Source: Candidatus Omnitrophota bacterium
GTDB lineage: Bacteria; Omnitrophota; Gorgyraeia; 2-01-FULL-45-10
DNA length: 32,000 bases
Direction of reading: 5' to 3'
Assembly: GCA_023818895.1 (NCBI GenBank)
Contig: JAMWCX010000003.1
Location: forward strand, 150,001-182,000
Shown here piece after piece: positions 1 to 16,594 of this stretch. Below the pieces are notes generated by a model. That model saw only the letters and a program-made list of their open reading frames with translations. It did no database searches and was not told the DNA's origin. A program made the translations under genes and the position numbers. Numbering within the stretch: the first letter of the stretch is position 1; each line of letters starts with the position of its first letter.

Positions 1-788
1 CATATGTTATGTATATTTCGAGGTAATTCTAAAGGTAAATAATTAACTTTATCTTTCATTAGTCGCCAATCACCATCTACCCCATTCTTACCACTTTGAA
101 TGCTTACTGAGAATGTCCTGTTATTAACAACGGTTACTCTTACATCTATTTTGTTTGAAAGGAATTCTTGAAATATTGCAGGCGAAGACGATAATGTCTT
201 TCGACGAATATTAGATACGCTTATAGGATTAGTATATATAAATGCATCTTTTTTGGATATTTTTAATACTACCGAATCTACCGTTTTAATCGCTAATCTT
301 TTCTGTCCTGGGAAATAATTGTTTATAGCTTTATCTGTATTGGTAATTATTGTTTTTGGTATCTTAAAACCAACGGCCTTTGCCATATGAATTTGGAAAG
401 GTTTACTTTCTGCTGCGTATGTAGCCTTTGGATGATTAATCCATAAGCAGTCTTTAAATATCATTAGCCCTCTATTAAAAGCTGCCCATTGCGTCCTACT
501 TAACTGTTCAATAGGAGTGAGATTAGGATTATAGTTATCTCTTAAAAAAGTAGGTCTTCTAAAGAATATAGACTTTAAACTTTTATTAGTTATTTCAAAC
601 TTTATATTCTCAAATTTCCCTGCTAACTTTGACTCAATAGGAAATAGATTTATATCCATATTCACGAAGTCTTCTTGATTTAATCTAAGATAGGGTTTCC
701 TACGTTTTCTTAATTCCGCCGCAATATAATCTGATGCGAAGTCATATTTATTAGATAATATAAGAATTTCTGGCCTTAAGCTTTTCAT
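1..788 (-). CDS. ATP-grasp ligase, MvdD/RimK-like (N-terminal 262 codons only; C-terminus lies beyond the window start)
   Basis: It is absent from the ORF track because it has no stop in the window. I checked the frame codon by codon: ATG at 788-786, open to base 1. The N-terminus is MKSLRPEILILSNKYDFASDYIAAELRKRRKPYLRLNQEDF. Later segments AESKPFQIHMAKAVGFKIPKT, IDVRVTVVNN and GDWR resemble ATP-grasp peptide maturases/RimK. Assignment is by motif memory. Confidence 0.6.
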   Translation of the reverse strand, partial: MKSLRPEILILSNKYDFASDYIAAELRKRRKPYLRLNQEDFVNMDINLFPIESKLAGKFENIKFEITNKSLKSIFFRRPTFLRDNYNPNLTPIEQLSRTQWAAFNRGLMIFKDCLWINHPKATYAAESKPFQIHMAKAVGFKIPKTIITNTDKAINNYFPGQKRLAIKTVDSVVLKISKKDAFIYTNPISVSNIRRKTLSSSPAIFQEFLSNKIDVRVTVVNNRTFSVSIQSGKNGVDGDWRLMKDKVNYLPLELPRNIHNI

Positions 789-802
789 AAACTTAAAATT
801 TC

Positions 803-1030
803 TTATTCGCCTTTTTGATCTTCACCCGTTTCTAAATCGGCTTTTTTAGTCCCGGCCATGGGTTTGTTTATATCTTTTGACTTTACTAAAAATACTTCTT
901 CATTTTCTTCTCTACGCATCCAACCGCCATTTTCAAAATCATAATGGCAACCATCGGGTTGCAAAGACCTTCTTTTCTGTGAATATATATAAGCTTTTTC
1001 AATCAGTATATGACTAGACCGTTCCTTCAT
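803..1030 (-). CDS. 75-aa small protein with a Thr/Lys/Asp/Glu-rich C-terminal tail (candidate ATP-grasp substrate/precursor)
   Basis: The track ORF is 803..1057, but the internal ATG at 1030 is preceded by a perfect SD (AAAGGAGGTATTTTATG). It ends 14 nt upstream of the ATP-grasp start. The tail is ...KPMAGTKKADLETGEDQKGE. Confidence 0.5.
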   Translation of the reverse strand: MKERSSHILIEKAYIYSQKRRSLQPDGCHYDFENGGWMRREENEEVFLVKSKDINKPMAGTKKADLETGEDQKGE

Positions 1031-1063
1031 AAAATACCTCCTTTCTTTAAAAAACAATCTTTG

Positions 1064-1252
1064 TTAAATAATATAAACACTCCTTGAGGCATGCCATTTA
1101 TATCCACATTTAGGACATTCTGTTCGTTTTGTGCCTGCCAATAAAGCTAATAACCCAATCGGAAAGAAAAAAATTGATACAAGAATTTGCCATGTAGCAA
1201 ATCCAGCTTTATCGACTAATTCTCCACACTTACAACAAGGAACTTTTGCCAT
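1064..1252 (-). CDS. 62-aa split zinc-ribbon membrane protein
   Basis: The CCKCG and CPKCGYKW cysteine pairs flank a hydrophobic hairpin (WQILVSIFFFPIGLLALLAG). It sits in the same-strand operon. Confidence 0.5.
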   Translation of the reverse strand: MAKVPCCKCGELVDKAGFATWQILVSIFFFPIGLLALLAGTKRTECPKCGYKWHASRSVYII

Positions 1253-1279
1253 AAAATAATTTGGTAGTTTGCTATCGCT

Positions 1280-1666
1280 TTAATTTCTTGCAATCAAAAT
1301 ATCTCTGCTATTCCATAAGAACCAAGCAATTAACCCACCGCCCCAATAAACTATTATGTCTAGAAAGTCTCCTGTTCCTCGATACAAACAATAAGGACCC
1401 AGAAATTCAAAGAAGACGGACCAAATAGTTAAAACACTTATTATTTCAATGAGAGTAGGAGGCCTACAGTCTCTATGGCCAATTTTATGTATCACAAATA
1501 ATAAGAGGGGTAAACAGCAAGGCACTAGGAGTAAATCATTGAAATAATATAACTGGATGGCACTCAAAGAATGAAACTTCAACGTTATAAAAAACTTATT
1601 TAAAATATAAGCGGATAGGGCTATAATGAATATAGGATCAGAAAGATAATTAAATTTATTCTTCAT
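1280..1666 (-). CDS. 128-aa integral membrane protein (about 4 TM segments), function unknown
   Basis: Several hydrophobic segments (IFIIALSAYIL, LLLVPCCLPLLLFVI, IISVLTIWSVFFEFL, GGGLIAWFLW). Its start lies 4 nt from the stop of the upstream small gene. Confidence 0.6.
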   Translation of the reverse strand: MKNKFNYLSDPIFIIALSAYILNKFFITLKFHSLSAIQLYYFNDLLLVPCCLPLLLFVIHKIGHRDCRPPTLIEIISVLTIWSVFFEFLGPYCLYRGTGDFLDIIVYWGGGLIAWFLWNSRDILIARN

Positions 1667-1669
1667 GAA

Positions 1670-1846
1670 TTAAAGACCTATGGATATAACTATTACAGCT
1701 GTTATTATTGCTCCTACTATTAGCAAAAACCAGCCGCAGCCACTCATGCCCTGAGAAGTTTCTTTTAACCGATACCCGCAATGAGGACAGGAAACAGCCT
1801 GATCAGATATTTCTTTTTTACATTCGGGACAATTAACAATAGGCAT
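1670..1846 (-). CDS. 58-aa zinc-ribbon protein with a C-terminal TM helix (below the ORF-track size cut-off)
   Basis: Hand translation gives MPIVNCPECKKEISDQAVSCPHCGYRLKETSQGMSGCGWFLLIVGAIITAVIVISIGL*. A strong SD precedes it (AAAAAGGGGAGATATTATG). It has the CPxC...CPxC ribbon plus a TM tail. Confidence 0.55.
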   Translation of the reverse strand: MPIVNCPECKKEISDQAVSCPHCGYRLKETSQGMSGCGWFLLIVGAIITAVIVISIGL

Positions 1847-1945
1847 AATATCTCCCCTTTTTTAACATTTCTAATGTCTTGACATATTTTAAATCATGTC
1901 TAGATTCATTAATTTAACTAGCAAATATTATGCAACATAACTAAT

Positions 1946-2146
1946 CTAATGTTTTCTCCCAGCCAATTCATCTATTGAGACCTCAAAAACATCCGCTAAT
2001 TTAGAAAGAGTCTCAAAGGTTGGGTTCTTTGCCTTCCCTGACTCAATCTTAGAAATTGTATTATATGAAATATCAACCAATCTGGCAAGTTTCTCTTGTG
2101 ATAACTTCTTTCGTTTTCTTAATTTTTTCAAATTTTCAGCAAGCAT
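1946..2146 (-). CDS. XRE-family helix-turn-helix transcriptional regulator (66 aa)
   Basis: LKKLRKRKKLSQEKLARLVDISYNTISKIESGKAKNPTFETLSKLADVFEVSIDEL is a canonical HTH_3/XRE pattern. Confidence 0.85.
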   Translation of the reverse strand: MLAENLKKLRKRKKLSQEKLARLVDISYNTISKIESGKAKNPTFETLSKLADVFEVSIDELAGRKH

Positions 2147-2152
2147 TTATAC

Positions 2153-2181
2153 TTGACTTCGAGTAAATTACTCATTATAAT
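2153..2181 (+). promoter_or_regulatory. Near-consensus sigma70 promoter reading rightward (TTGACT-17 nt-TATAAT)
   Basis: TTGACT at 2153-2158, an exactly 17-nt spacer, TATAAT at 2176-2181. It is divergent from the XRE gene. The predicted TSS is about 2188, upstream of the hairpin array and the recombinase. Confidence 0.6.
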
Positions 2182-2188
2182 ACGAGTA
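2160..2188. promoter_or_regulatory. Operator-like repeat set overlapping the promoter: (C)GAGTA-aat-TACTC-N10-(C)GAGTA
   Basis: GAGTA at 2161-2165, TACTC at 2169-2173 and GAGTA at 2184-2188. The N10 spacer contains the -10 hexamer. The set lies 14-42 nt upstream of the XRE start codon. Confidence 0.35.
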
Positions 2189-2274
2189 TCAAAGGTTATA
2201 TATTATCATTTATATTATACTACTAAAAGTCTTTTTTAAAAAGTAAATTTTTGCCACTGTAAAGGGTAGTCGTT

Positions 2275-2620
2275 GGGGCGGGCGTGCCCGCACCACGCCC
2301 GCCCCAGAGATTTGGTTTTGAAGCACTGCGCGTGAGAAGCTTTGCCTCCCGCCTTTGTGGGAGTTTTTAGATTGTTGTAGGCGGGAGAGCGGACGAATCC
2401 GCTCTTTAAAATTCTGGTTTTACTTATAAAAAATCTTGAAGTAAGGACGCTTGCGTCTTGCGTTGAGTTTTTTAGGTTGTGCTCGCAAGACGCAAAGCAA
2501 AGCTTAAACCCGCAATAACATTAGCAAGAAGCCAGCCGGCCCAGGCTGGCGCCGAATGAGCCCCGCTCCCAAGCGGGGCGAATGGGGCGCGGGAGATGTG
2601 GGAGCGCCCCAAGGCGCGGC
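2275..2620 (+). ncRNA. Candidate structured non-coding RNA or leader (unclassified GC-rich hairpin array)
   Basis: Hairpins read directly from the sequence. H1: 2275-2286/2294-2305 (12 bp). H2: 2346-2353/2380-2387 (8 bp). H2b: 2386-2393/2398-2405 (8 bp, CGAA loop). H3: 2451-2462/2484-2495 (12 bp). H4: 2531-2537/2544-2550 (7 bp). H5: 2561-2566/2573-2578 (6 bp). H6: 2584-2590/2604-2610 (7 bp). An enclosing pair is 2551-2554/2617-2620. I found no credible ORF. It lies downstream of the consensus promoter. The strand is inferred from that promoter. Confidence 0.3.
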
Positions 2621-2673
2621 TAAAGATTGATAAAATTATGGCGGTAAAACATTCTGATTTCGTCGCAAGAACA

Positions 2674-2810
2674 CCGCCAGTCAGGACAGCCCTGCGATTT
2701 CGCGATGAAGTCGTAGGGCTTTTTATATGTAACGCATAGGGTTGTGTCTTTTAGGATGAGGTTCGAGCCGCAAATTTTCAAAAAATCTTTTTTGGGGCTT
2801 AAAATTTCCT
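2674..2810. repeat. Left arm of a perfect 137-bp inverted repeat (IR-L)
   Basis: I reverse-complemented 4220-4356 by hand and it is identical to 2674-2810 at all 137 positions. The match breaks on both sides (2673/4357 and 2811/4219). Confidence 0.95.
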
Positions 2811-2913
2811 ATTCGCTGAAAGCGAATAAGTAAATTTTTGAGGTTAATCAAGACCTCAAAAACTTTCTTTGCCAAGCGACAGAACAATAATTTTTTATAA
2901 GGAGGGTTAGACC

Positions 2914-4401
2914 ATGCCAAAATACTACTTATACGCCCGCAAGTCAACGGATGATGAAGACAGGCAGATATTGTCTATTGGATCTCAACTCAATGAACTC
3001 CGGGAATACGCTCAACGGGAAAATTTGTTTCTACTGGAGGAATTTATCGAAACCAAGACCGCTAAGAAACCCGGCAGACCTATCTTCGACTTTATGCTTA
3101 AGCAGATTGAGGCGGGCGTAGCTAACGGTATTTTGGCATGGCATCCGGACAGGCTTGCCCGTAACTCTGTAGACGGCGGAAAGATTATCTATTTAGTAGA
3201 TGTTGGTAAGATTCTTGACCTTCGCTTCCCCACTCTTCGCTTTGATAACTCTGCCCAAGGAAAGTTTATGCTCTCTATCGCCTTCGGGCAAAGTAAATAT
3301 TATGTTGATAATCTTTCCGAGAATATTAAGCGCGGGATGAGGGAAAAGTTAAGACGCGGAATCTGGCCTAATTGGGCCCCACTTGGTTATCTGAATAATT
3401 ACAAAGAACACAATATCTACCTTGATCCGGAAAAGGCTCAGTTTGTAAGGAAGATTTTTGAACTCTATGCCACAGATAGTTATACCCTCTCATCAATGGT
3501 TGAAGAAATTCGCAGGTGGGGCCTTACAGGAAGCATGGGCAAGCCTGTCTGTAAATCGCAACTGGCAAGGTTATTGAGGAATCCGATTTATTACGGTGTA
3601 TTCAAGTTTAACGGTGAAATGTATGAAGGAAGCCACCCGCCGCTTATCTCTAAGAAACTTTTTGATAGCGTGCAGGATATTTTGGACAACCGCCACCGCA
3701 ATCATAAACCCGCAGAAACGAAATATGCCCTTACCGGGTTAGTAAAGTGTGATTACTGCGGTTGTGCAATTACCGCAGAGAAACAAAAAGGACACATTTA
3801 TTACCACTGCACCAAAAAGAAAGGCCCCTGCTCAAGCAAAAAGTTTCTTAGAGAAGAGGCTTTGCTTTCTCAAATAAACGAAGCGATCAAAAAAGTTTTT
3901 ATAGACGATTCAACAAAAGACAAAATGATTAACCGCTTTGACGAACTCTTCCAAGAGGAAAGCAAAGCCTCCTCTTCTCTATCTCAAGAAGTTAAAAACC
4001 GAATCAGCGAATTTGATGCAAAACTTGAGCGACTCGTTGACATCTTCATTGACCGCCAGATTACTCAAGAGGAATACACCAAAAGGAAGGCAAAACTGCT
4101 CAACGATAAGAAGGATTTAGAAGGGAAACTCAAAGAGATAGAGAAAAGCGGCGGCGGGTGGCTCGAACCGGCAAAACAATTCGTAACTACTTGTAATAGA
4201 GCTGGTTCTGTCGCTTGGCAGGAAATTTTAAGCCCCAAAAAAGATTTTTTGAAAATTTGCGGCTCGAACCTCATCCTAAAAGACACAACCCTATGCGTTA
4301 CATATAAAAAGCCCTACGACTTCATCGCGAAATCGCAGGGCTGTCCTGACTGGCGGAGAGGCAGGGATTTGAACCCTGGATACCGGCTTTCACCAGTATA
4401 G
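2914..4401 (+). CDS. Large serine recombinase (resolvase catalytic domain + recombinase domain + zinc ribbon + coiled coil)
   Basis: YLYARKSTDDEDRQ...SIGSQ and HPDRLARN are the catalytic-domain motifs. LRNPIYYGV marks the recombinase domain. CDYCG...YYHC is the zinc ribbon, followed by a coiled coil (EFDAKLERLVDIFIDRQITQEEYTKRKAKL). SD GGAGGG at 2901-2906. The last 15 codons (4357-4401, RGRDLNPGYRLSPV*) are antisense of tRNA-Ser, so the C-terminal tail is context dependent. Confidence 0.9.
   Translation: MPKYYLYARKSTDDEDRQILSIGSQLNELREYAQRENLFLLEEFIETKTAKKPGRPIFDFMLKQIEAGVANGILAWHPDRLARNSVDGGKIIYLVDVGKILDLRFPTLRFDNSAQGKFMLSIAFGQSKYYVDNLSENIKRGMREKLRRGIWPNWAPLGYLNNYKEHNIYLDPEKAQFVRKIFELYATDSYTLSSMVEEIRRWGLTGSMGKPVCKSQLARLLRNPIYYGVFKFNGEMYEGSHPPLISKKLFDSVQDILDNRHRNHKPAETKYALTGLVKCDYCGCAITAEKQKGHIYYHCTKKKGPCSSKKFLREEALLSQINEAIKKVFIDDSTKDKMINRFDELFQEESKASSSLSQEVKNRISEFDAKLERLVDIFIDRQITQEEYTKRKAKLLNDKKDLEGKLKEIEKSGGGWLEPAKQFVTTCNRAGSVAWQEILSPKKDFLKICGSNLILKDTTLCVTYKKPYDFIAKSQGCPDWRRGRDLNPGYRLSPV
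4220..4356. repeat. Right arm of the perfect 137-bp inverted repeat (IR-R)
   Basis: It covers the last ~45 codons of the recombinase body (QEILSPKKDFLKICGSNLILKDTTLCVTYKKPYDFIAKSQGCPDWR). It also covers the terminal 6 nt (CCGCCA) of tRNA-Ser. Confidence 0.95.
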
Positions 4402-4444
4402 CGGTTTAGCAAACCGCCGCCCTAGGCCACTAGGCGACCTCTCC
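4351..4444 (-). tRNA. tRNA-Ser (anticodon GCT), CCA encoded
   Basis: Hand fold: acceptor GGAGAGG/CCTCTCC, anticodon stem GCGGT/ACCGC with loop TTGCTAA, a long variable arm (type II), T arm CAGGG-TTCAAAT-CCCTG, discriminator G, then CCA. Confidence 0.9.
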
Positions 4445-4661: not shown

Positions 4662-5300
4662 TTATTTAAAAATACGCGTGCCGTTGCGCTGATGCTTGTA
4701 CCTGAAGGTGCTGGTGCTGGGAAGATTATTGCTATCGGCCATAAACATCGTCTCAACAAGCGCATATGTGCCGTCACCGCAGCGCACAGCATAAATCCGA
4801 CCAGGTGCTCCGCTTGCTGCATCCTTGTATCCGGAGGCAGGCGCCTCGACTACGTTTTCAAGGCCAACGGGGCCCAGATCTACGAGGCCACCGCGGGATT
4901 CTATCCAGCCCTCGCGGCGCCTGAAGTCTGACTGGACCGGAAAAGGCGAAGTCTCCCGCGTCTTCGACCGGGTTGAAAAGTTAAAACCCTCTATGTCGAA
5001 ATTAGGCGGATGAGGAAGCTTGTACTGCGTCAGGGTAAAATTGCCAATGGTCACCTGCGACGCGGCCGGCGAGGCCGGGACCGGCGGGGTAGCCCCGCCG
5101 GTCCCGCCAGTCGTGCCGCCTGTCCCGCCGCCCGCTCCGGGCTGATCGCCAGTTCCGTCCCTGGCCGCTATCTTGATCTTCTCAATGACCTTCTCGCCAA
5201 GTCCGCTTGAGTCCGCTATTTCGGGCGAAAGCGTCGCGTAGACGAGGTCGCCGCGCAGGTTCCGCAGCCTCATGGAGCCTTCCTCGAGGGCGAACAGCAT
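4662..5300 (-). CDS. C-terminal fragment of P2 (212 aa): last strands of the NTF2-like module + Gly/Pro linker + C-terminal beta domain
   Basis: MLFALEEGSMRLRNLRGDLVYATLSPEIADSSGL aligns with P1 MMFVIEDGRMKIQNLRGNLIYATLSPEIAESSGL. VEAPASGY...GRIYAVRCGDGTYALV aligns with P1 VEAPTSGY...GDVYVFITRGGLYGKL. Confidence 0.6.
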   Translation of the reverse strand: MLFALEEGSMRLRNLRGDLVYATLSPEIADSSGLGEKVIEKIKIAARDGTGDQPGAGGGTGGTTGGTGGATPPVPASPAASQVTIGNFTLTQYKLPHPPNFDIEGFNFSTRSKTRETSPFPVQSDFRRREGWIESRGGLVDLGPVGLENVVEAPASGYKDAASGAPGRIYAVRCGDGTYALVETMFMADSNNLPSTSTFRYKHQRNGTRIFK

Positions 5301-5318
5301 CGTCGTGTTGCCTTTCGT

Positions 5319-7775
5319 CTACTGCTGCTTGCCTGTCTTCCTGACCGACTGGGTCTTATCCCATTTTGTTTCGGCAACGAATTCGGCACCGCGCTTCTCT
5401 ATCCTGTTAAGGAACATCGAAAGCCGTATACCGTCGAAAGTATCAAAATCGCGGCGGATGCCGTCTTCCAGAAAAGACCTATTGCCTATAAAATCCCTTG
5501 ACACCAGCGCCAAAAAAGCGGCGGCGTTCTTTTTCTCGTACGCCTCGGAAAGCTTCTTTACCACTTCTGCGACGAGCTGCTTATAATCTGTTCCCGGCGG
5601 TATACCAGGCGATGGACTTTGCGGGCCAGCCGGCCCCATAGTCGGCGGTGCAAGAGGAGGCGTGACAGGACTCTTATGCTTGGCGCTCCAGTCGCTTTCG
5701 ATCCGGGACAGGATCGCTTTGAGACGACCAACAACTCCATCTAGATTAGCACCTTTTGTGGCGCTCTGCATCTCGGCTTTGATACTCTCCATATTCTTAT
5801 TAAAACTTTCTTTGTCGAGGCTTGACCACCCCGGCCTTTCCTTTTCTATGCGCTCCCATATCTTATAAAGAGCGATCGCCTTTCCAGCGCGCGATGATGG
5901 TTCGAATGCGGCCGACGGTAGCTCGGGAATGGTCTCGAAACACTTGGCATAAGCAGCAACACCCGCTCCTTGTACTCGTTGGTATGTTTTGTCATCCATC
6001 GCAGGTGCCCTTAGGTATGCGTTTTCCACGCGCGATGCCGCATTCATATCACTGATGATCTCGCGATTAAGTCCTTTCACGCCGTCGACATAATAGTAGT
6101 AGTGCGCCAAGGCCTTGGTATATTTACTGTTGAGCAAATCGGATTCTTTCCGCAAGTTTTCATAGCTGGCCATAATCTTTTTCGCCGCTTCATAATTTCC
6201 GTTCGCCATAGCATCAACCAACTGTCTTTCGAAGAGGTTTGCGTCGAATGTCATCGAAAGTATGCTCGTCATCCCTCCCTTGGAAGTACTGTAGTAAAAT
6301 TCGCTTGCCGGTGGGTTCCGCTTCACCCCAAAACCTGAGGCCGCAACTAACTTATCGAATGCCGCAGCACTTCCTTCCATCTGCGAGAAGGCATTCTCCA
6401 TGTTCGTGTAATACTCATCAAGCTGCGTGGAAACGGCTTCATAAGCTTTAATCTTCGCCTCGAACATCTTTGCCAGCGTCTTCTCGTTCTTCGAAGATAT
6501 CTGGATAGCGTCCGGCAATAGTTTATCAATTCGCTCAAGGTCCGTATCGAGTGAGCTCGCTGTCGATAAGAAATCCGGTCCCCGCGAAGTTCTATCGAAA
6601 TTAACATACCCTGGAACGAGCCTGGAGAAGAGCCAAATAATCATCCTCTTCTGATCGACCGACCCCGCCCCTTGAATCTTAACGCGCTCATTCTCAAGCT
6701 GCTCACCTTGCTCAATTAATTTGGTAAACCTCCTCTCTTTCACCGCAAGCTCTGTAGCAGCCGCAATAAGCGATTTTAAGGTAGCTCGCAAACCACTTAC
6801 CGTTGATATCCACCGTGTAAAGACCTCTTGGCCTTTTTTAGCCCCTGCATGCAATTCAACGATCTGCTCTGCCGACAACGGTACGGCTGGATCTATCTCT
6901 TTAGGGACTTCGAAATACTGGAATTCCGCCATTTTGGCGGTTATATCGTCGAGCTGCAAACGAATCTTTTCGCGCTCCTCAATGATAGACTTAGCAAGTG
7001 GCGGCATCTCTTTCTCAAAGACAGCGGCAGCCGCGTCGTACTTTCTTGCCCATGCCTCGTAATCGGCGTCCGCTTTGCCTGTTAGGGCCAGCGGCGGAAG
7101 CGCCGCGGGCGCGCTTCCATCGGCCTTCTTATTCGCCTCGTTGACTATCTCATTGATCTCTTTTTCCTTCTTTTCCTTCAGAGTATTTATCAGGCGTGTC
7201 TGAAGCCCTCCCTTCCTTTTTACAAGAAGCTGATTCTCTTTATATAGTTCTGGCGGTTCACTCTCGATCTTCAACTTTGTTACCTTAAGCTCCGCGATAA
7301 TCTCATCTATCCTTTTTTGAAACTTTTCTATGCCATCGAGAGTATTTTTGAAACGGCGGTAGATCATAGCGATTTGGTCGTCCTCGCCAACATCGGAGGT
7401 CATACGAAGCCAGCCGTGGTATTCCCCGGCGCTCAACGATAGCTCCCACTGAAACTTTCGCATCTCAGGCACAATCGCGCTGGCATCTGAGCTAAGCTTC
7501 TTCACTGCCCTGCCATACGGAGACCGGGCCATCTGCTGAAGCGTATCCATCGCATACTCGTGTCCGCATGATCCAATAATACCCAATACAGTCGCCTCGG
7601 CAAATCCGGTCGCGAATTTGACCTTCGTCACCGTTTCGAATCCGACGGTGATCGTCGATTTGATAAGGTTCTTCCTCAGTATGGGTTGTAACTGCTGTTT
7701 AAGAGCCTCGAGGTCATTATAGACCCTTTCAAGGTCAGCCCGTCTTTGGGGATACGCCTTGAGGAATTCTTCCAT
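5319..7775 (-). CDS. Middle fragment of P2 (818 aa from the first ATG; the frame is open up to 7838): helical region + Pro-rich linker + most of an NTF2-like module
   Basis: Track ORF. It ends ...AETKWDKTQSVRKTGKQQ* where P1 reads ...ADTRWIKSQVPRSTGQQQR. As called it has no signal peptide of its own. Confidence 0.6.
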   Translation of the reverse strand: MEEFLKAYPQRRADLERVYNDLEALKQQLQPILRKNLIKSTITVGFETVTKVKFATGFAEATVLGIIGSCGHEYAMDTLQQMARSPYGRAVKKLSSDASAIVPEMRKFQWELSLSAGEYHGWLRMTSDVGEDDQIAMIYRRFKNTLDGIEKFQKRIDEIIAELKVTKLKIESEPPELYKENQLLVKRKGGLQTRLINTLKEKKEKEINEIVNEANKKADGSAPAALPPLALTGKADADYEAWARKYDAAAAVFEKEMPPLAKSIIEEREKIRLQLDDITAKMAEFQYFEVPKEIDPAVPLSAEQIVELHAGAKKGQEVFTRWISTVSGLRATLKSLIAAATELAVKERRFTKLIEQGEQLENERVKIQGAGSVDQKRMIIWLFSRLVPGYVNFDRTSRGPDFLSTASSLDTDLERIDKLLPDAIQISSKNEKTLAKMFEAKIKAYEAVSTQLDEYYTNMENAFSQMEGSAAAFDKLVAASGFGVKRNPPASEFYYSTSKGGMTSILSMTFDANLFERQLVDAMANGNYEAAKKIMASYENLRKESDLLNSKYTKALAHYYYYVDGVKGLNREIISDMNAASRVENAYLRAPAMDDKTYQRVQGAGVAAYAKCFETIPELPSAAFEPSSRAGKAIALYKIWERIEKERPGWSSLDKESFNKNMESIKAEMQSATKGANLDGVVGRLKAILSRIESDWSAKHKSPVTPPLAPPTMGPAGPQSPSPGIPPGTDYKQLVAEVVKKLSEAYEKKNAAAFLALVSRDFIGNRSFLEDGIRRDFDTFDGIRLSMFLNRIEKRGAEFVAETKWDKTQSVRKTGKQQ

Positions 7776-7996
7776 ACGAATAATGGAATCGGCAATGGGG
7801 TCGATCTTGCTTTGGACATATTGAATCTCTTTTTCTAGCTAATAAACATCTTCCTCGGCAATGGATGATGGTTGCAGGGGTAAAAAGACTGTGGCAACAA
7901 GGGGAATGAAGGTAATAAAAATAACATATCTGTATCTCATAGGGTCCTCCCTAAGAAATGATAGCGGCGGTTTTAATGAAGTAATAGCATTCTATA

Positions 7997-10900
7997 TCAT
8001 CGCGTAGCGATATCCCGCGAACCGTTGGTCTGGACAGCATATTCAAACGTCACTGTATCATTGACCATCGGAACATTGACCAGAGAGGTTATGCGCAATT
8101 TTCCGTAAAGGCCACCCCTTGTTATGAAAACATAGACATCACCCACCGCTACAAAAGCCAGACCGGTATAGCCGCTTGTTGGAGCTTCCACCAGGTCATC
8201 GAAAGAGCTTGTGGATTTTTGTATCTGAGCTGTGCCATTCATCAGGAATCTATTCATCTCCATGAAATCGAAATCGCCTACGCCGGTGGTTGTAATAGTG
8301 CCGGTGGCAAAGTCAAGACCGCGGACATTGGGACCAAAAGGCGGTGGGGCAGAGGTAATACTAACCGTCCTAGTAGTAAGGCCTCCGGGCGAAGAAACTC
8401 CCCCTGACTCCTCAGTTTGACCAGCGCCCGGCTGGACTGGAGTGCGCGTCTGCTGGGCAATCCTGATCTCTTCGACGGTCGTCTGCGACAGGCCGCTTGA
8501 CTCCGCTATCTCAGGAGAGAGAGTGGCGTATATGAGGTTTCCGCGTAGGTTCTGGATTTTCATTCGGCCATCTTCAATGACAAACATCATCGTAGTATTA
8601 CCGCTTGTGCGCTGTTGCTGGCCGGTCGAGCGGGGCACCTGGGACTTTATCCATCTTGTATCCGCTGAATAGGTGTTGCCTCGTACCTCTATCTTGTTTA
8701 TAAATATCTGAAGGCGTATGTTGTCGAACATATCGAAGTCAAACCGAACACCCTCTTCCAGGAATGTGCGGTTTCCCAGAAAATCCCTTGATATGAGGTC
8801 CGCGAAGCGTGCCACGCTCTCAGCCTCGTACGCTTCGGCAAGTTCCTTCACAACGGCCACCACGAGATCCTGGTAATCTATGTTCTGGTATTGTATGCCC
8901 TGGATGTTCTCGAAGGGTTTGATAACAAACTCGTCCATGTCAACGCCTTTTATCTTCACGGCTATTTGGTAAGTACGATTTGGTATCGGTGTAAAAGAAT
9001 ACCTTATTGCCTGGTCGACCGGAAGCTCGTTCCAGGTCCTTCCGTCATCGACGGATATGAGGAGCTTTTCTATTCTATCTTTGGTATTGAGCCGAGCGCT
9101 AAACTCTATGGCGTTATTCTTAAGGTCCGAGTTTGTGAACATAACCATTCCCGATGTGATGCTTTTTAAGTTGTTGCCGTTAACACGCGCGTCATAAAGC
9201 TTATAAAAGGACATCGGGTCAACCGGCGGTGATATGGGCATAGGGGCAGTCGGGCCTATGGGGCCTTTTGGCCCGGTCGGCGGCTGTGTCGGTATGGGAC
9301 CGGTCGGGCCTATGGGCGCGGTCGGCACTGTCGGCGTCGTCGGCGCGGTAGGAGCGGCTGGGCCGGGGGGGCCTTTTGGAGTCGTCGGCAAGTTTTTTAG
9401 ATACTCCTCTCTTTTATTAAGGATATCTTGTAAGGTATTGAGCGCGCTTAAATACTTATTCCCTAGAGGGTTATTGTAATCGCCCTCAAATCCTTTATGC
9501 CGTTCGGTGACAGCATACCTAACAGTCTTCGATGAGGGAACTAGCGCCCCAGCAAAACCCTGCGCTGTCGAAACCGCCATTATTGCCTTCTCAAACTCGA
9601 TATCGCTTGAGTTGTATTTCAAGTTATTGACTGCCGCTACGAATCGATCGAGCTCACTCTGCCAAATAACATGAGTTCCTTCGGAATTCCTTACGATGGC
9701 ATTTTCTTCTGAAGCCGTTTTTATTCCTGCCGGAGCCTTCAGAATCTTCTGAACCCAGGTGTAGACGTTAGGTGCGTACTTTCTCATGAACTCATATCCA
9801 GGGTACCTCTCCCAGTCCTTAGCGATGCTATCTATACGGGCTTTGACTTCAGACTCCAACATGTAATGGCGGTACGGAGTGCTTGTTACGAACATTCCGT
9901 CCATAACCTCGAAAATAAGTTCGTAGTTACCATTCACTTTCTTAAAAACTTTCTTTGCCAGTTCATCCTCAAAAAAATCGTTAACTTCCCGGGCTCTTTC
10001 CTCGAGCCAGGCAGCGTCTTTTTGGCGGTTCTCGGCATCAGATTTGACTCCTTTGAATCTCTGGCTCAAATCTGAAATAAACGAAGGGAGTTTCGCGACA
10101 GCGCTGTCGATCGATTTTTTCTCGGTATAAATAGCGTTCAGGTCCAGCGGGCCATTCGACTCTTTTAGCATAGTATTTATATTTACAAAATCTTGGTCAG
10201 AAGGCTTGTCGGCCTTCTGCCACATATCGGCATATGACTGCCAGGTGGAAAAAAATTTCTGGACTTCTGCTATAATAATACCCGCGTCGACCGGGTCTAT
10301 GCCATCCGCTCTTATCTTTTGTGCAAGAGTATTAATCTCTGATATCAACTCAACCTGATTACGCGGCTTCTCAAAGACAACCAGATGAGTGTACTTGTTC
10401 TTCTCTATCATAGAGAGGATCTCATCAAGTCGGCGTAATTCCTTATACATGTTGTACTGAGAGGTTGCAAACACACCCGTACTCATGTCCACAGTTCGCC
10501 CTGTGTTGATCATATCTATAGGAAGGTGCTGCTTTATCTTTTCCACAAGACCACGATACTTGGTTAGCTCAGCTTTGCGCAGAGCCCTTACCGCCTCATA
10601 TGCGCTCGCGATCTCTCCCATAGCCTCCCAGATTCTGTTCACATATTCGTGGCTTTCCTTCTTTATCCTTAAAATCTCATCAAACGCTTGCCGCGAGGCC
10701 TCGTTGAAAGCGTCTTCCTCTCTGCTTATCCTCGATGCTTCTTTGTAATCCTCCTTATCCTTAGCGGCCCTTTTTCTGGCAGCGAAGACAATATTTTGTT
10801 CATGAACGATCTCTGAAAGCTTTGAGTATATTTTTTTATAATATTCCTCTACAAGATTATCCTGCTCCCTCCACCTATTCCTGAGCTCCCAACCTTCCTT

Positions 10901-11884
10901 AAACTTGCCTTCTTTTAAAAGTTTTTCGATGTCTTTCTTGTATTGTTCGCCATCCTTAACCCAGCTATCAAAATTCTCCCGCTGCATAATGGGAAGAAAG
11001 AACTGGCGATAATAACCATCGGCTCCTGGTGAAGTTATGTTTGGTGATGGCGCTGAGGCAGGCCTGGCGGTCTTTACCTGCAGTCTTGTAGTCTCGCTTT
11101 GTATTTTTTCCAGACTCTTTTCTTTCGCCTTCTTATATCGCCCTTCCAATTCCGCAAGGCGAGCATTTAACCTTTCTATCTGCGGCATTATTTCGTTTAG
11201 TCGCTCTCTTGCTGCTCTATGTGTATTGTCCAGCTGCGTCATAAAACCATTGAGGACATTTCTGGCATTTCGTATCTCTTCGAACAACATATGATATTTC
11301 CTGTAAACCGCAGCCCTTTCCGTAAGCTCTTCGCCTTCCTCCTCTCTCGCAACTGCTTGGACTTCCTCGATCGTCATCCTCAAGGTGTTCTGCACATTCT
11401 CAAGGACTGGATATAGCTGTCTGGATTGTTCACTTATGCCTCTCATGGCTTGGTTATAAGAAGCGCTCATGAAATATTCGCCGGCCTGCTGGCCGGTCTC
11501 TGTAAGCGCTGACGCTATAAGAACTCCTACCGATTTTTGCAATGCACCGTAGCCAGCTGAGATAAGTGAGAAAGTGTCCAGCGAGGCTTTCATCACATCC
11601 TTGAGAATGTTGTTACGGAAAAACGTCGATAGCCTCTCTTCGAACCTATCCAGCTCTGTCATGATATTTGCGAGCGTGTCTCTTGCGGTAGGATACTCAT
11701 CCATGAATAGCCGCAGGTTAGCTTCCTCCCTCAGTAGCGGATCCAGATGGCGATGAGTCTCTTCTATCTCCTTCTGTAGATAATAGGGATCTTCATCGGC
11801 AAAAAGAGGGGCTAGTCCGAATAATGCCGAAACGGAAATAATTGAAAGCCAAACTATGATAAGATTGCGATATCTTTTGATCAT
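7997..11884 (-). CDS. P1: 1295-aa secreted multidomain protein of unknown family. Domain order: signal peptide, ~950-aa helical/coiled-coil region, Pro-rich linker, Ig-like beta domain, NTF2-like module, Gly/Pro linker, C-terminal beta domain.
   Basis: The ORF is long and uninterrupted. The signal peptide is MIKRYRNLIIVWLSIISVSALFGLAPLFA/DED. Heptad-like stretches occur (RLNEIMPQIERLNARLAELEGRYKKAKEKSLEKIQ). The linker is PTTPKGPPGPAAPTAPTTPTVPTAPIGPTGP.... There are no TM segments after the signal peptide. Confidence 0.85.
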   Translation of the reverse strand: MIKRYRNLIIVWLSIISVSALFGLAPLFADEDPYYLQKEIEETHRHLDPLLREEANLRLFMDEYPTARDTLANIMTELDRFEERLSTFFRNNILKDVMKASLDTFSLISAGYGALQKSVGVLIASALTETGQQAGEYFMSASYNQAMRGISEQSRQLYPVLENVQNTLRMTIEEVQAVAREEEGEELTERAAVYRKYHMLFEEIRNARNVLNGFMTQLDNTHRAARERLNEIMPQIERLNARLAELEGRYKKAKEKSLEKIQSETTRLQVKTARPASAPSPNITSPGADGYYRQFFLPIMQRENFDSWVKDGEQYKKDIEKLLKEGKFKEGWELRNRWREQDNLVEEYYKKIYSKLSEIVHEQNIVFAARKRAAKDKEDYKEASRISREEDAFNEASRQAFDEILRIKKESHEYVNRIWEAMGEIASAYEAVRALRKAELTKYRGLVEKIKQHLPIDMINTGRTVDMSTGVFATSQYNMYKELRRLDEILSMIEKNKYTHLVVFEKPRNQVELISEINTLAQKIRADGIDPVDAGIIIAEVQKFFSTWQSYADMWQKADKPSDQDFVNINTMLKESNGPLDLNAIYTEKKSIDSAVAKLPSFISDLSQRFKGVKSDAENRQKDAAWLEERAREVNDFFEDELAKKVFKKVNGNYELIFEVMDGMFVTSTPYRHYMLESEVKARIDSIAKDWERYPGYEFMRKYAPNVYTWVQKILKAPAGIKTASEENAIVRNSEGTHVIWQSELDRFVAAVNNLKYNSSDIEFEKAIMAVSTAQGFAGALVPSSKTVRYAVTERHKGFEGDYNNPLGNKYLSALNTLQDILNKREEYLKNLPTTPKGPPGPAAPTAPTTPTVPTAPIGPTGPIPTQPPTGPKGPIGPTAPMPISPPVDPMSFYKLYDARVNGNNLKSITSGMVMFTNSDLKNNAIEFSARLNTKDRIEKLLISVDDGRTWNELPVDQAIRYSFTPIPNRTYQIAVKIKGVDMDEFVIKPFENIQGIQYQNIDYQDLVVAVVKELAEAYEAESVARFADLISRDFLGNRTFLEEGVRFDFDMFDNIRLQIFINKIEVRGNTYSADTRWIKSQVPRSTGQQQRTSGNTTMMFVIEDGRMKIQNLRGNLIYATLSPEIAESSGLSQTTVEEIRIAQQTRTPVQPGAGQTEESGGVSSPGGLTTRTVSITSAPPPFGPNVRGLDFATGTITTTGVGDFDFMEMNRFLMNGTAQIQKSTSSFDDLVEAPTSGYTGLAFVAVGDVYVFITRGGLYGKLRITSLVNVPMVNDTVTFEYAVQTNGSRDIATR

Positions 11885-11902
11885 CTATTTATGCCTTTCA
11901 TC

Positions 11903-12400
11903 TTATAATGGTGAGTTCCCCTTTATGTCGTAAAGCCGCCACGCTCCGTTCTCCTGCCTGTAAACAAACATGCACTGACCTTTAAAATTTCGCTGCAGGC
12001 CCGTCTTTCGGACCATGACCTTTTTTTCCCACGAGAATGAAACCGCAAGTTTGTCAGCTGTCCTGTTGACTGTGCTTATGAAAAAATCGACTTGTGTGGG
12101 CTTCGCGCTGTAATATCTGCGCTCCACGCGGTTAACGAAAGCGTATTTGTCATTCGGAAAATCATCCGATACGCGATCAGTAAATTGACCTCGCGTGTAG
12201 CTCGTATAAGAGCTTATCGTCTCGGATACAAGCCTCTGGGCAAGGGACCTATCTTGTGCTGTAGTAACCTGCGGCCCTCCTTCGCAAAACAAGGGTGACG
12301 CATGAAAAAAAACTGATGTGGCCAAAATAAGAACAGCGATCCAGAACCGATTAGAAATTACTGAGAAAGCGAGTGATGATCCTCGTCTCGTCATACGCAT
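11903..12400 (-). CDS. 165-aa secreted protein consisting of a signal peptide plus the same NTF2-like module found in P1/P2
   Basis: The track ORF starts at 12436. I prefer ATG 12400 (MRMTRRGSSLAFSVISNRFWIAVLILATSVFFHASPLFCEG), which shortens the overlap with the upstream gene. The C-terminal ...FSWEKKVMVRKTGLQRNFKGQCMFVYRQENGAWRLYDIKGN parallels P1 ...TRWIKSQVPRSTGQQQRTSGNTTMMFVIEDGRMKIQNLRGN. Confidence 0.7.
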   Translation of the reverse strand: MRMTRRGSSLAFSVISNRFWIAVLILATSVFFHASPLFCEGGPQVTTAQDRSLAQRLVSETISSYTSYTRGQFTDRVSDDFPNDKYAFVNRVERRYYSAKPTQVDFFISTVNRTADKLAVSFSWEKKVMVRKTGLQRNFKGQCMFVYRQENGAWRLYDIKGNSPL

Positions 12401-14087
12401 TTCCGCTATCCTCCGCGTTATATCTGTTGAATTCACCTCTCAGAACAACCCGCGTATTGCGCTTCTTTTCCATAAGCAGGTTAAACTCAGCGTAATTCAT
12501 CGCGTTGAAATACCCCTGGGCCGGGCCTGCGGCTGTAGAAGCGTTGACATTATATCCGAAGTAAAACATGTGTTCGGCCAGAAAATTATACTGGCCCGTT
12601 ATGCCGAAGCCCGTGATAACTTCGTCGTCGTCTTCCGATTTCTGGTCGTGAAAATCCATACTAATGTTCGCATTACAATAGAATCTTTTTCCGAATATCT
12701 GCTGCTCGCGGCCGACATTACCTCCTAGGCGGTAAAAATAGTCCGAGCTCTTGCTGTTATACCTGTCAGTGTAACCCCTGAACTCGTAAAAAAGACCGTA
12801 GGAAGTCTTCTCATCAAGGTTGTCATTGATGCTCAGGCCGGGGGTGAGAGTAATTGTATTTATAAGGTGGGCAGGATCGTCTGAATTACGCTGCTGGATA
12901 TTAGTATAAGCGCGTATGTTAAAGTCGGGGTCCTTGTCAAGAGGAGCAAGCGTAAGAGTTATGTACTGCTCGTCATTTGTAGTCCGGTATGAACGTTCGC
13001 TTCTTGCAAGACGGTCCCAGTAATAGTTCTCCACGAATGATAGTCGCGCTTTTTTTGTAAGATCGGCATCAACGGTGAATTGGTGCTGCATCTTATCCGG
13101 CATAGCTGAACCGGAATCAGTGTAAAACTGCGGGGTGACATAATAGTAGAGGTATTTGACCGAAAAAGGGCCATATCTTAACCTGGGCTGAATCCTTAAC
13201 GCCGTCCCCCAGTTCACGTCGGTATTGACCTTCTGGTCAGGCGTATAGGCGCTTCCGGCAAGCTCATAGACGACGCTGAAAAACTTCCTGAAGTTTATCT
13301 CTCCATCCCAGCTTACGACAACATTGTGGAGATCCGGTATCGGTGTCTGCCTGTTCGTATTATCTACCGTTCCTCTGTCATCTTCGTTTGCTATGACCTG
13401 GAGGCCGTTCCGGAAAAGGGTAAAATCTTCAGATCCCTGAAATAGAAAAAGATCGGCCTTGCCGCCGGCTACATTGCGCCAGTAGGTGGCGGCGTCGGGA
13501 TCGGGGCTTTGGCTCCGGGCAGCCACGCCTTTAAATTGAAGTGTGTCGGATCCTTTGAGCTCCAGCGCAAATCCTTCCAGCGAATTGCCGAGGACAAACT
13601 GGGAAAAATCCCCGTAGAAATCACCGAATAACAGCATGTTTTCGGAATTGTATATCTTGGTGGTAAGCTGCTTTAACCGCAGGTCTTTTCGGCGCTCTAT
13701 CCTGCGGTCATCGGTGCGCCTTACAAATACCTGGCCTTCAAAACTATAGCCTTTCCAGAGACGCTCATAGGCGTTAACGTTAACTTCCGTATTCTGGTAT
13801 ACGCCTTTGCGCAGGAATGAATTATTGCCGTTTCCGCCCACATCGTTCCAGCTGACGTCTTCCATGACGCTACCGGTGATCATGCCTGACCGTTCAATAC
13901 CGTAATCGCCGTAAGAGGCAAAGTCCAAAAGATCGTCCACCCTCTTCTGCCATGTAAAAGCCGGGACCGCCTCGCCGGCCTCTCCGACGGTAGCGCCTTC
14001 TCCAAGATAGAAGACCTCGGCAGCGTAAAGTGAGGGCGCTAGGAAAAAAATGGAGAATAATAGGCAATGGTATCTGAAATATTTCAT
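12351..14087 (-). CDS. 578-aa predicted outer-membrane beta-barrel protein
   Basis: Signal peptide MKYFRYHCLLFSIFFLAPSLYA/AE. Alternating aromatic/polar strand patterns run throughout, with abundant Y/F/G/N/D. The C-terminus ...TRIITRFLSNF ends in Phe, which is typical of BAM-assembled barrels. No POTRA-like or plug motif recognised. Confidence 0.7.
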   Translation of the reverse strand: MKYFRYHCLLFSIFFLAPSLYAAEVFYLGEGATVGEAGEAVPAFTWQKRVDDLLDFASYGDYGIERSGMITGSVMEDVSWNDVGGNGNNSFLRKGVYQNTEVNVNAYERLWKGYSFEGQVFVRRTDDRRIERRKDLRLKQLTTKIYNSENMLLFGDFYGDFSQFVLGNSLEGFALELKGSDTLQFKGVAARSQSPDPDAATYWRNVAGGKADLFLFQGSEDFTLFRNGLQVIANEDDRGTVDNTNRQTPIPDLHNVVVSWDGEINFRKFFSVVYELAGSAYTPDQKVNTDVNWGTALRIQPRLRYGPFSVKYLYYYVTPQFYTDSGSAMPDKMQHQFTVDADLTKKARLSFVENYYWDRLARSERSYRTTNDEQYITLTLAPLDKDPDFNIRAYTNIQQRNSDDPAHLINTITLTPGLSINDNLDEKTSYGLFYEFRGYTDRYNSKSSDYFYRLGGNVGREQQIFGKRFYCNANISMDFHDQKSEDDDEVITGFGITGQYNFLAEHMFYFGYNVNASTAAGPAQGYFNAMNYAEFNLLMEKKRNTRVVLRGEFNRYNAEDSGNAYDETRIITRFLSNF

Positions 14088-14090
14088 ATG

Positions 14091-14588
14091 CTATTTTTTG
14101 CGATGCGATTTATCATATGTTGCGTTAATCTTTTTACAATGACGCTTTATCCTGAAGAATTCCCGCATTAACCTTGCGCAATCTTCCCTAAGCAATCCTT
14201 TTATGATTTTTATTCTATGATTTAATCTTGAGCTGTCAACAATATTTAGCACCGAGCCGGCCGCTCCCGCTTTCGGGTCGCTTGCTCCATAAACAAGCTT
14301 CTTCACCCGGCCCAGCACCATCGCGCCCGCGCACATCGGGCAGGGTTCAACCGTGGAATATACGGTGGTATCAAGTAGGCGCTCATTCTGAAGGTACGCT
14401 GCAGCCTGAGTCAGGGCAATCATTTCGGCATGGGCGGTAGGGTCTTTTAACATTTTTATCTGATTATGCGCGCGGCCTATTATCCGGCCTTTGTGAACAA
14501 TAATGGCGCCTACCGGCACCTCGTCAGCCTCGAAGGCTTTGTGCGCTTCTTTCAAGGCTTCCCGCATATATAGCACATCAGTGGACAT
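14091..14588 (-). CDS. tadA: tRNA-specific adenosine-34 deaminase
   Basis: VPVGAIIV...HAEMIAL...PCPMCAGA are the CDA-fold zinc motifs (HAE, PCxxC), with the typical TadA length. The true start is ATG 14588 (MSTDVLYMREALKEA). The track ORF extension to 14810 is read-through of the tRNA gene. Confidence 0.9.
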   Translation of the reverse strand: MSTDVLYMREALKEAHKAFEADEVPVGAIIVHKGRIIGRAHNQIKMLKDPTAHAEMIALTQAAAYLQNERLLDTTVYSTVEPCPMCAGAMVLGRVKKLVYGASDPKAGAAGSVLNIVDSSRLNHRIKIIKGLLREDCARLMREFFRIKRHCKKINATYDKSHRKK

Positions 14589-14733
14589 GATAAAACTGGC
14601 GCGCCCGGCAGGATTCGGTCTTCCGCTCGCAGAGCTCGCTTCAGACCTGCCGATTTGCTTACGGCCAGAGGCCTTTTCCTGCCGCTGGTCGGCGCAAATC
14701 GGCTTTGAATCCCCCGAAGCGCTGTAACTAAAC

Positions 14734-14810
14734 TGGCGTGCCCGGCAGGATTCGAACCTGCGACCTACTGGTTCGTAGCCAGTCACTCTATCCAACTGAG
14801 CTACGGGCAC
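14734..14810 (-). tRNA. tRNA-Arg (anticodon ACG), CCA encoded
   Basis: Hand fold: GTGCCCG-TA-GCTC-AGTTGGATA-GAGT-G-ACTGG-CTACGAA-CCAGT-AGGTC-GCAGG-TTCGAAT-CCTGC-CGGGCAC-G-CCA. This is a perfect cloverleaf. Confidence 0.95.
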
Positions 14811-15262: not shown

Positions 15263-16594
15263 CTAAATTTTTATAATCCTCTGTATCACGTTCTTCAGCT
15301 TATCGCTATCGTGGCGCACCAGCTCCGTCTGGTGAGTTATATCTGCCCTTATTACCTTGGCTTTTGTAATCTTTTTTATTTTTTCGAGGTCCCCAAGCTT
15401 TACCGGAAACTGCCCTTTCGCCTTGTAAAGCCCTAGAAGCCTTTTAGAAACCTTGGAGTTAGAAACTACTATATAATCGAGATAATCTCCTCTCATGTAA
15501 TTAATGATCTCTCTTACGTGTTCGAACACTCCGTAATGGGCGGTTTCGCCGGGTTTGGTCATTAGATTGCAGACATATACCTTCTTAGCACGTGTCCGGG
15601 CAAGCGCCTCTGGTATATGCTCAACGATAAGATTGGTTATTACGCTTGTAAAAAGATCGCCTGGCCCTATCACAACAACATCCGCATTCAAGATGGACGC
15701 GAACGCATCGATGTTGCAAACAGCGCATGGCTCATGCCATAGACCCTTGATGCGGAGTTTTGGGTTCCTCCCTTCCGCAAGGTCTATCTTGTTTTCGCCT
15801 CTTATTATCTTACCGTGTTCAAACATTGCCATAAGCCTGACATTCGTGTCAGTTACTGGTATAACTATCCCCTGGATGTTTAATATATCCCCCAAACACC
15901 TGACACCCTCTTTCATCGAACCTGTGATTTCGTTAAGAGCGGTAAGAAATAAGTTGCCGAAATTATGACCTTGGTATTTTTCCCCACCTTTCCTGAACCT
16001 GTGCTGTAAGACTTCGTTCATAAGCAGCGGGGCATTTGAAAGCGCTACAAGGCTTCGCCTAACGTCGCCGGGCGGCAGCATGCCGAATGATTCCCTAAGT
16101 TTTCCTGTAGAGCCGCCGTCATCGCTCATGGCGACAATTGAATTTATCAAGACATGCGGTAGTTTTTTTAGTCCCATAAGAAGATTAAAAAGCCCTGTGC
16201 CGCCACCCATGCATGTTATTCTCACCTTTTTGTGGTAGCAGGAATTTATTCGAAGTATTAGTTCTCTGTAATTGTATGGGCGAATTACAATCTCGGAGGC
16301 TCCGAAGCTTTCCGCTTCCTCCGCAAGGCAAAAACTCGATGAAGATGACAGGAATATGAAACTCTTTCCTGAAGTTCTCAATATCTTTAAAAAATCGAGT
16401 CTTTTCGAATCAAGTCCTCCAGAAAATGCGTCATTGTCAAATAGCGCGCATGCCACATCACCGCGTCTTATTTTTCTTTTTATATCTGTCGCTGTGAACG
16501 CAAAATCAAAAGGTATGGCTATCTGCGCGAGTATGCTTTTAATTTCTCTGGCTTCCCTGCCTCGGCAGATTACGAGTATCTTTTTTTGGGCCAT
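15263..16594 (-). CDS. YvcK/CofD-family (UPF0052, gluconeogenesis-factor-like) protein with an N-terminal degenerate receiver-like domain
   Basis: CMGGGTGLFNLLMGLK...AMSDDGGSTGKLRESFGMLPPGDVRRSLVAL is the YvcK/CofD signature. The N-terminal ~120 aa has REC topology but reads ILVICRGRE where the acidic pair is expected. Confidence 0.85.
   Translation of the reverse strand: MAQKKILVICRGREAREIKSILAQIAIPFDFAFTATDIKRKIRRGDVACALFDNDAFSGGLDSKRLDFLKILRTSGKSFIFLSSSSSFCLAEEAESFGASEIVIRPYNYRELILRINSCYHKKVRITCMGGGTGLFNLLMGLKKLPHVLINSIVAMSDDGGSTGKLRESFGMLPPGDVRRSLVALSNAPLLMNEVLQHRFRKGGEKYQGHNFGNLFLTALNEITGSMKEGVRCLGDILNIQGIVIPVTDTNVRLMAMFEHGKIIRGENKIDLAEGRNPKLRIKGLWHEPCAVCNIDAFASILNADVVVIGPGDLFTSVITNLIVEHIPEALARTRAKKVYVCNLMTKPGETAHYGVFEHVREIINYMRGDYLDYIVVSNSKVSKRLLGLYKAKGQFPVKLGDLEKIKKITKAKVIRADITHQTELVRHDSDKLKNVIQRIIKI

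Follow-up and report, generated by a model that had tools for sequence, protein, structure and literature searches.

The 32,000-nucleotide (nt) stretch of Candidatus Omnitrophota DNA analysed here (contig JAMWCX010000003.1, positions 150,001 to 182,000; hereafter the window) carries on its minus strand two adjoining paralogous genes for large proteins. The upstream gene, P1, is intact, and the downstream gene, P2, stays open over its whole length apart from two internal TAG codons. We think it probable that P2 is a young nonsense pseudogene, or a loss-of-function allele held by the majority of the population, and that it represents the last copy of a tandem paralogue array. The features on which this reading rests are the following.

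4662-7940, minus strand: P2, the interrupted paralogue, whole frame (by translation; the intact orthologue P0002 aligns with 99% of it at 49% identity)
7946-7951, minus strand: Shine-Dalgarno (SD)-like GGGAGG, with a 5-nt spacer to the P2 ATG (7938-7940); anti-SD duplex -11.8 kcal/mol
7839-7841, minus strand: TAG1, codon 34 of P2; Tyr or Phe in relatives, one step from TAT/TAC
5319-5321, minus strand: TAG2, codon 874 of P2; mostly Arg or Lys in the family column, one step from Lys AAG
7997-11884, minus strand: P1, the intact upstream paralogue, 1295 aa, ending in TGA (open reading frame (ORF) and BLASTP)

The interrupted frame and its intact relatives

From the ATG at 7940 the minus-strand frame runs for 1092 codons to a TAA at 4662-4664 (1093 codons translated), and the TAGs at codons 34 and 874 are its only internal stops. 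Our translation thus reproduces what an earlier sequence-only reading of this DNA had described, a frame interrupted by two TAGs and by nothing else, and the strong SD that it placed before the ATG is the GGGAGG listed above. TAG1 falls in the context EEDVY*LEKEIQ, where P1 has DEDPYYLQKEIE, and TAG2 in KTGKQQ*TKGNTTMLF, where P1 has STGQQQRTSGNTTMMF. The same reading saw homology to P1 continuing across both stops, and BLASTP bears this out: the C-terminal alignment, which crosses TAG2, reaches 41% identity over 306 aa (E 5e-60), and the N-terminal one, which crosses TAG1, 21% over 249 aa (E 1e-15). It was also right that an ATG lies 18 nt downstream of TAG2 (5298-5300), at a place where P1 likewise has Met.

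P2 is a real gene, because an uninterrupted orthologue of 1085 aa, P0002 from a Logan assembly, aligns with it over 99% of its length and has a P1-like gene just upstream. Two further intact relatives, P0003 and P0004, are 41-44% identical. The P1/P2 duplication had been called old, and other genomes do have the two types as neighbours. When GTDB representative genomes were scanned, family members turned up at 41 loci, mostly in Omnitrophota, the nearest of them 41-62% identical to the window, whose own genome is not a representative. Tandem arrays of 2-4 paralogues are frequent in the family, so that a backup copy is the norm. The recurrent gene order is a 578-aa protein, a small NTF2-like protein and one large protein, often with tandem paralogues of it (2-4 in all), and the window holds the first two of these directly upstream of P1.

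11903-12436, minus strand: small 177-aa protein related to the NTF2-like module of the large proteins, a conserved upstream operon partner found beside an outer membrane protein (OMP)-like gene in many related loci
12351-14087, minus strand: 578-aa protein whose N-terminus resembles a signal peptide; it opens the conserved cluster and belongs to no known family (cluster comparison)

Searching with the full-length P2 protein returned an identical 818-aa piece of P2 and then only relatives at 49% identity or less, and JGI metagenome contigs, scanned for exact patterns that had NNN at the two TAG positions, yielded no near-identical intact allele. The 818-aa piece (NC938_06455) comes from a Candidatus Omnitrophica/Omnitrophota metagenome-assembled genome (MAG), on a 321-kb contig. 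A second bin with neighbouring accessions (NC933, GCA_023818765.1) contributes two contigs, L001 and L044, that are 100% identical over about 9.5 kb, both TAGs included. The stops are reproducible between assemblies; both assemblies represent the same strain, and their agreement hence adds no evolutionary depth. The NC933 assembly breaks within P1, leaving window positions 8325-10099 uncovered by L001 and L044, and the covered parts are 100% identical.

It is possible to read the TAGs as an artefact of consensus or population, made up of errors, minority alleles or merged haplotypes, such that most cells would carry an intact or singly hit P2. The sequence does come from MAGs, the two assemblies, from one strain and probably one study, are not fully independent, and there is no other public copy of P2 to compare. 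Two assemblies of unlike contiguity (the 321-kb contig versus contigs of 5.6 and 3.9 kb) nevertheless agree base for base over 9.5 kb, and substitution errors that hit stops twice in one gene and nowhere else would be odd. We consider this explanation unlikely.

Origin of the stops and the meaning of TAG

What residues stood where the stops are now? In the TAG1 column the copies from other genomes have Tyr (three) or Phe (two), and P1 has Tyr. In the TAG2 column the 60 copies from other genomes have Arg (24), Lys (22), Met (5), Leu (3), Thr (2), Ala (2), Asn (1) and Ser (1), and never Gln. A single substitution turns Tyr TAT or TAC, or Lys AAG, into TAG. Because no Arg codon is one step from TAG and Gln never occurs in the column, the ancestral codon at TAG2 was most probably Lys AAG and not CAG, the sense codon that the sequence-only reading had expected there. 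Comparison with orthologues, which that reading had called for, finds sense codons at both sites in the relatives: among the tblastn alignments of P1, P2 and P0002-P0004 against all loci (413 alignments, 41 loci), no family copy from another genome contains an in-frame stop. The only alignments that do contain one are those to L001, from the same strain, and in-frame stops are therefore not a family trait. Stops at positions that are sense codons in intact homologues, each one substitution away from a residue typical of the family, are what a nonsense pseudogene would be expected to have.

The fact that both stops are TAG, with no TAA, no TGA and no frameshift, had been taken to be meaningful, and here the earlier reading does not hold up. 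When all single-base changes of the P2 codons are enumerated, TAG is the commonest possible one-step nonsense outcome (51%, against 34% for TAA and 15% for TGA), and the probability that two nonsense hits are both TAG is 0.26-0.28, depending on transition bias. Nonsense changes make up 4.2% of P2 substitutions, so that about 24 neutral substitutions, or about 0.7% divergence, should be enough to bring in a second stop, and the absence of other damage is for that reason unremarkable.

The statement that P2 does not look like a long-decayed pseudogene fares better. At columns where three orthologues agree, P2 deviates at 17.6%, which is no excess over the 14.6-20.7% obtained when the orthologues are left out one at a time, and the segment after TAG2 is no worse than the segment before it. 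Between P2 and P0002 the proportion of nonsynonymous differences (pN) is 0.31-0.34 in all three segments, and that of synonymous differences (pS) is 0.82-0.95, at which synonymous sites are saturated. With pN uniform and pS saturated, the comparison argues for long-term purifying selection over the whole length of P2. Relaxation, if there has been any, would be too recent to measure, and the same pattern would fit either a very young break or continued function. The undecayed state of P2 is equally what a gene that has just been broken looks like.

Elsewhere in the window TAG ends 6 of the 20 other tabulated ORFs, and Pfam domains reach right up to such native ends: tRNA_bind (profile positions 1-95 of 96, in a 110-aa protein), CofD (profile positions 1-289 of 290), PilZ and a TadA-type deaminase. 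Two pairs of adjacent genes that share a frame, the deaminase followed by the 578-aa gene and the CofD-like gene followed by the tRNA-binding gene, merely mimic a TAG with an open frame after it. Judged by the window ORFs, TAG is a genuine terminator here. P2 alone among roughly 22 window genes has in-frame TAGs, and no other window gene has one inside a homologous region.

Genome-wide reassignment of TAG to a sense codon is thus extremely improbable; that both in-frame stops are TAG is the sole point in its favour. The six other ORFs end in TAG at known domain ends and are followed by new genes or further stops, and the two P2 columns call for different classes of residue, which disfavours any single recoded meaning of the codon. 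Genomes that have recoded TAG (for example to Gln in some phages) resemble P2 in having in-frame TAGs, but there the TAGs are found in many genes, stand for one amino acid and go with avoidance of TAG as a terminator, whereas the window shows one affected gene and frequent TAG ends.

Another possibility is that full-length P2 is still made at a low level, either because near-cognate tRNAs read through UAG or because the genome encodes, elsewhere, an amber suppressor or a pyrrolysine system; the stops would then throttle the output of a costly surface protein. In its favour, P2 keeps its start signals and shows no loss of homology before or after either stop. The two stops share one codon, with C or A as the fourth base, and Lys, of which pyrrolysine is a derivative, is common in the TAG2 column. 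Yet TAG is a frequent ordinary terminator in the window, no orthologue has a stop at either site, the residues needed at the two sites differ (aromatic at one, basic at the other), and two successive readthrough events would multiply to a very low yield. The window encodes only tRNA-Ser(GCT) and tRNA-Arg(ACG), and a scan of it found no tRNA(CUA); Pfam scans of 15 window proteins found no Pyl-related family; and the 100 nt 3' of TAG1 and of TAG2 show no unusual RNA structure when compared with shuffled sequences (z = +1.22 and -0.61). Our literature search tied Omnitrophota neither to stop-codon recoding nor to pyrrolysine, and found no paper citing this assembly. We regard production of full-length P2 by this route as quite unlikely.

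Comparison with characterized systems points the same way. Amber suppression and pyrrolysine insertion (tRNA-CUA; pylTSBCD) also place in-frame UAGs in an otherwise intact gene, but P2 is not a methylamine methyltransferase, its two sites differ in residue type among relatives, and the window, in which TAG is a common terminator, has neither a tRNA(CUA) nor a pyl gene. Programmed readthrough likewise involves a stop within a continuing frame with C or A after it, but programmed sites are conserved and often have a 3' stimulatory element, whereas no orthologue of P2 shares either stop and the RNA after them folds no better than shuffled sequence. The broader proposition, that the lineage tolerates or exploits UAG readthrough (through a suppressor tRNA, a Pyl-like system or near-cognate decoding) and that P2 is throttled with its ambers maintained rather than decaying, is in our view highly unlikely.

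Three other routes to a variable or repaired frame were rejected on inspection. Editing of UAG to UGG (A-to-I) by the nearby TadA would presumably need its target, the UACG loop motif of tRNA-Arg(ACG), which neither site has. Phase variation would call for a simple repeat, and there is none at either TAG; the invertible segment nearby lies outside the gene, downstream of P2. Mutagenesis by a diversity-generating retroelement finds no reverse transcriptase in the window.

Products of termination and the case for inactivation

Termination at the two TAGs would divide P2 into three pieces, the second stop cutting through a folded module.

7842-7940, minus strand: Piece A, codons 1-33, a signal-peptide-like N-terminus (MRYR, a hydrophobic core, then SSIA before EE), from inspection and alignment with the N-termini of P1 and P0002-P0004
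5319-7775, minus strand: Piece B, 818-aa ORF from the first in-frame ATG (codon 56) to TAG2, NCBI hypothetical protein NC938_06455, without SD-like sequence or signal peptide
4662-5300, minus strand: Piece C, 212-aa ORF, NC938_06450, with the rest of the NTF2-like fold, a Gly-rich linker and a C-terminal beta domain; a weak GAAAGG lies at -16 to -11
5226-5588, minus strand: NTF2-like module of P2 (about aa 785-905), from an AlphaFold2 (AF2) model of the homologous P1 module and Foldseek; split by TAG2 before its last two strands

Codons 1-33 comprise MRYRYVIFITFIPLVATVFLPLQPSSIA followed by EEDVY, which is to say a signal-peptide-like stretch plus five residues, in agreement with the earlier proposal that TAG1 parts the signal peptide from the body of the protein. 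If TAG1 terminates, Piece A is the sole product from the strong start at ATG 7940. The other part of that proposal, that TAG2 falls inside an NTF2-like module and leaves a broken domain, finds support in both AF2 and Foldseek. The model was made on the P1 C-terminal module from an alignment of 28 sequences and is transferred to P2 by way of the 41% identity between them. It has a pLDDT of 86.8 and shows helices, four long strands (residues 51-66, 69-82, 89-102 and 105-113), a linker and a beta domain. Foldseek aligns module residues 1-120 with NTF2-like structures, 3rob and 3hx8 among them, with probability 1.00, TMt 0.74-0.78 and a root-mean-square deviation of about 2 Å. The predicted arrangement, N-terminal helices packed on a curved antiparallel sheet, is the alpha+beta cone of the NTF2-like (SnoaL/DUF4440-type) superfamily. 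In contrast to that superfamily, the module matches no Pfam or NCBIfam model by sequence, and it forms one part of a secreted protein of 1100-1300 aa and unknown function. TAG2 maps to residue 90 of the module, where the third strand begins, and a protein that stopped there would lose the last two strands.

These pieces bear on another alternative, gene fission, in which the 818-aa and 212-aa products would be translated separately by re-initiation at ATG 7775 and ATG 5300 and would act as subunits. Both are long ORFs that NCBI annotates as genes. The ATG past TAG2 is near enough for termination-reinitiation, P1 has Met at the same position, and the octamer GAAAGGCA occurs about 9-16 nt upstream both of this ATG and of the P1 start (window 5301-5322 and 11885-11906). 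The octamer may be a coincidence or a weak ribosome-binding motif of this genome. ATG 7775 has no SD-like sequence, a point whose force as a criterion for fission is limited, in that many window genes, P1 among them, have no strong SD. The family N-termini are signal-peptide-like and neither piece has a signal peptide; TAG2 would split the NTF2-like fold; and no family member at the 41 loci is split at either place. We judge fission to be very unlikely.

The four explanations that the sequence-only reading had left open can thus be narrowed. Recent inactivation fits best, readthrough has no positive evidence behind it, fission is unlikely, and population heterogeneity is here indistinguishable from inactivation. 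We propose that P2, the last large secreted paralogue in an operon conserved in Omnitrophota (the 578-aa protein, the small NTF2-like protein, P1 and P2), was recently inactivated by two single-base substitutions, Tyr TAY to TAG at codon 34 and, most probably, Lys AAG to TAG at codon 874. With TAG read as a stop, ribosomes starting at ATG 7940 would release a 33-residue signal-peptide fragment, any downstream products would lack an export signal, and the second stop would in addition split the NTF2-like fold. Whichever stop came first would have silenced the gene, after which the other would be neutral, and the event would be too young for further damage to have accumulated. On this sequence evidence, full-length P2 is presumably not made. 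We infer, rather than observe, the order of the two stops and whether the allele is fixed or just the majority in the sampled population.

Several observations weigh against inactivation. The start codon and strong SD of P2 are still intact, and two nonsense hits without an indel in an otherwise pristine 3.3-kb gene are mildly unusual, if not statistically so. The P2 TAGs are followed by C or A, and C or A after a stop is a weaker termination context in E. coli; in the window, though, C comes after five of the six native TAGs as well, so TAG-C, as at codon 34, is usual here. The sequence comes from metagenome bins, and the window consensus gives neither allele frequencies nor the linkage of the two TAGs.

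P2 resembles an ordinary nonsense pseudogene in a redundant paralogue in that its stops lie at codons that are sense in all relatives and are a single substitution away from what the family has there, an intact paralogue adjoins it, and the stop codon is used normally elsewhere. It differs in being very young, with no frameshift and no measurable relaxation, in coming from an uncultured population, and in that NCBI lists its pieces as two hypothetical proteins and not as a pseudogene. The stops in P2 are real but ordinary.

Neighbouring elements and the conserved operon

Directly downstream of P2 the character of the DNA changes at a tRNA gene.

4351-4444, minus strand: tRNA-Ser(GCT), directly downstream of P2, marking where the operon ends and borders on an apparent integrated element (tRNA scan of the window)

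Window positions 1-4356 abut the 3' end of this tRNA and look like a small integrated element. GC content is low (0.32-0.33 over 1-2000, against about 0.45 elsewhere), and the ORFs comprise one that by eye resembles an XRE-type helix-turn-helix regulator (1946-2146, minus strand), small Zn-ribbon-like membrane ORFs and a large serine recombinase gene (2914-4401, plus strand) with Resolvase, Recombinase and Zn_ribbon_recom domains and weak XisF/Ccr-like NCBIfam matches. A perfect 137-nt inverted repeat (arms 2674-2810 and 4220-4356, span 2674-4356) brackets the body of the recombinase gene, and its right arm includes a terminator-like hairpin after the tRNA (4310-4342). The 1.4-kb segment between the arms has the opposite orientation in the second assembly (L001 3970-5597), and the ORF is open either way (495 or 498 aa). 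The segment may truly be invertible, or the assembler may have been misled by the repeat, as the L001 contig ends inside it.

Upstream of the operon, window 14091-14810 holds the tadA-type deaminase gene, whose likely start is a Met at about 14588. Some 145 nt before that start, and on the same strand, is the gene for TadA's substrate, tRNA-Arg(ACG). The mechanically delimited 239-aa deaminase ORF overruns the tRNA, and its first ~74 residues are probably not real. Further on, a CofD/YvcK-family protein (15263-16594) has an N-terminal extension of about 120 aa, without a Pfam match, before its CofD domain (126-419).

The operon around window 7997-14087 recurs at loci L003-L042; it is uncharacterised and widespread in Omnitrophota MAGs, with 1-4 tandem large proteins. 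These share the C-terminal module, consisting of the NTF2-like fold, a Gly/Pro linker and the beta domain. P1 (aa about 891-1000, window 8879-9210), P0003, P0004 and most other copies carry an additional domain, about 110 aa long, just ahead of the NTF2-like fold, where P2 and its orthologue P0002 have a short Pro-rich linker instead (alignment columns about 950-1075). No significant Pfam, NCBIfam or PDB sequence match was found for P1, the P2 pieces, or the 177-aa and 578-aa proteins, and the sole trace of a known family is a sub-threshold FlgK_D1 match in P1.

What, then, do two amber codons in one such gene mean? In annotation, a pseudogene flag should replace the two hypothetical proteins NC938_06455 and NC938_06450, which together make up a single disrupted gene. 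More generally, a gene with TAG as its only kind of stop and no other damage can mimic recoding, even though chance predicts this for a young nonsense pseudogene. Should full-length P2 be made after all, a candidate phylum of free-living or episymbiotic bacteria would offer a natural example of amber suppression or readthrough, and that would be worth a paper, but nothing we found points there. Although the stops first drew attention to this locus, the conserved operon, with its 578-aa protein, small NTF2-like protein and two to four large paralogues, may prove to be of more lasting interest.

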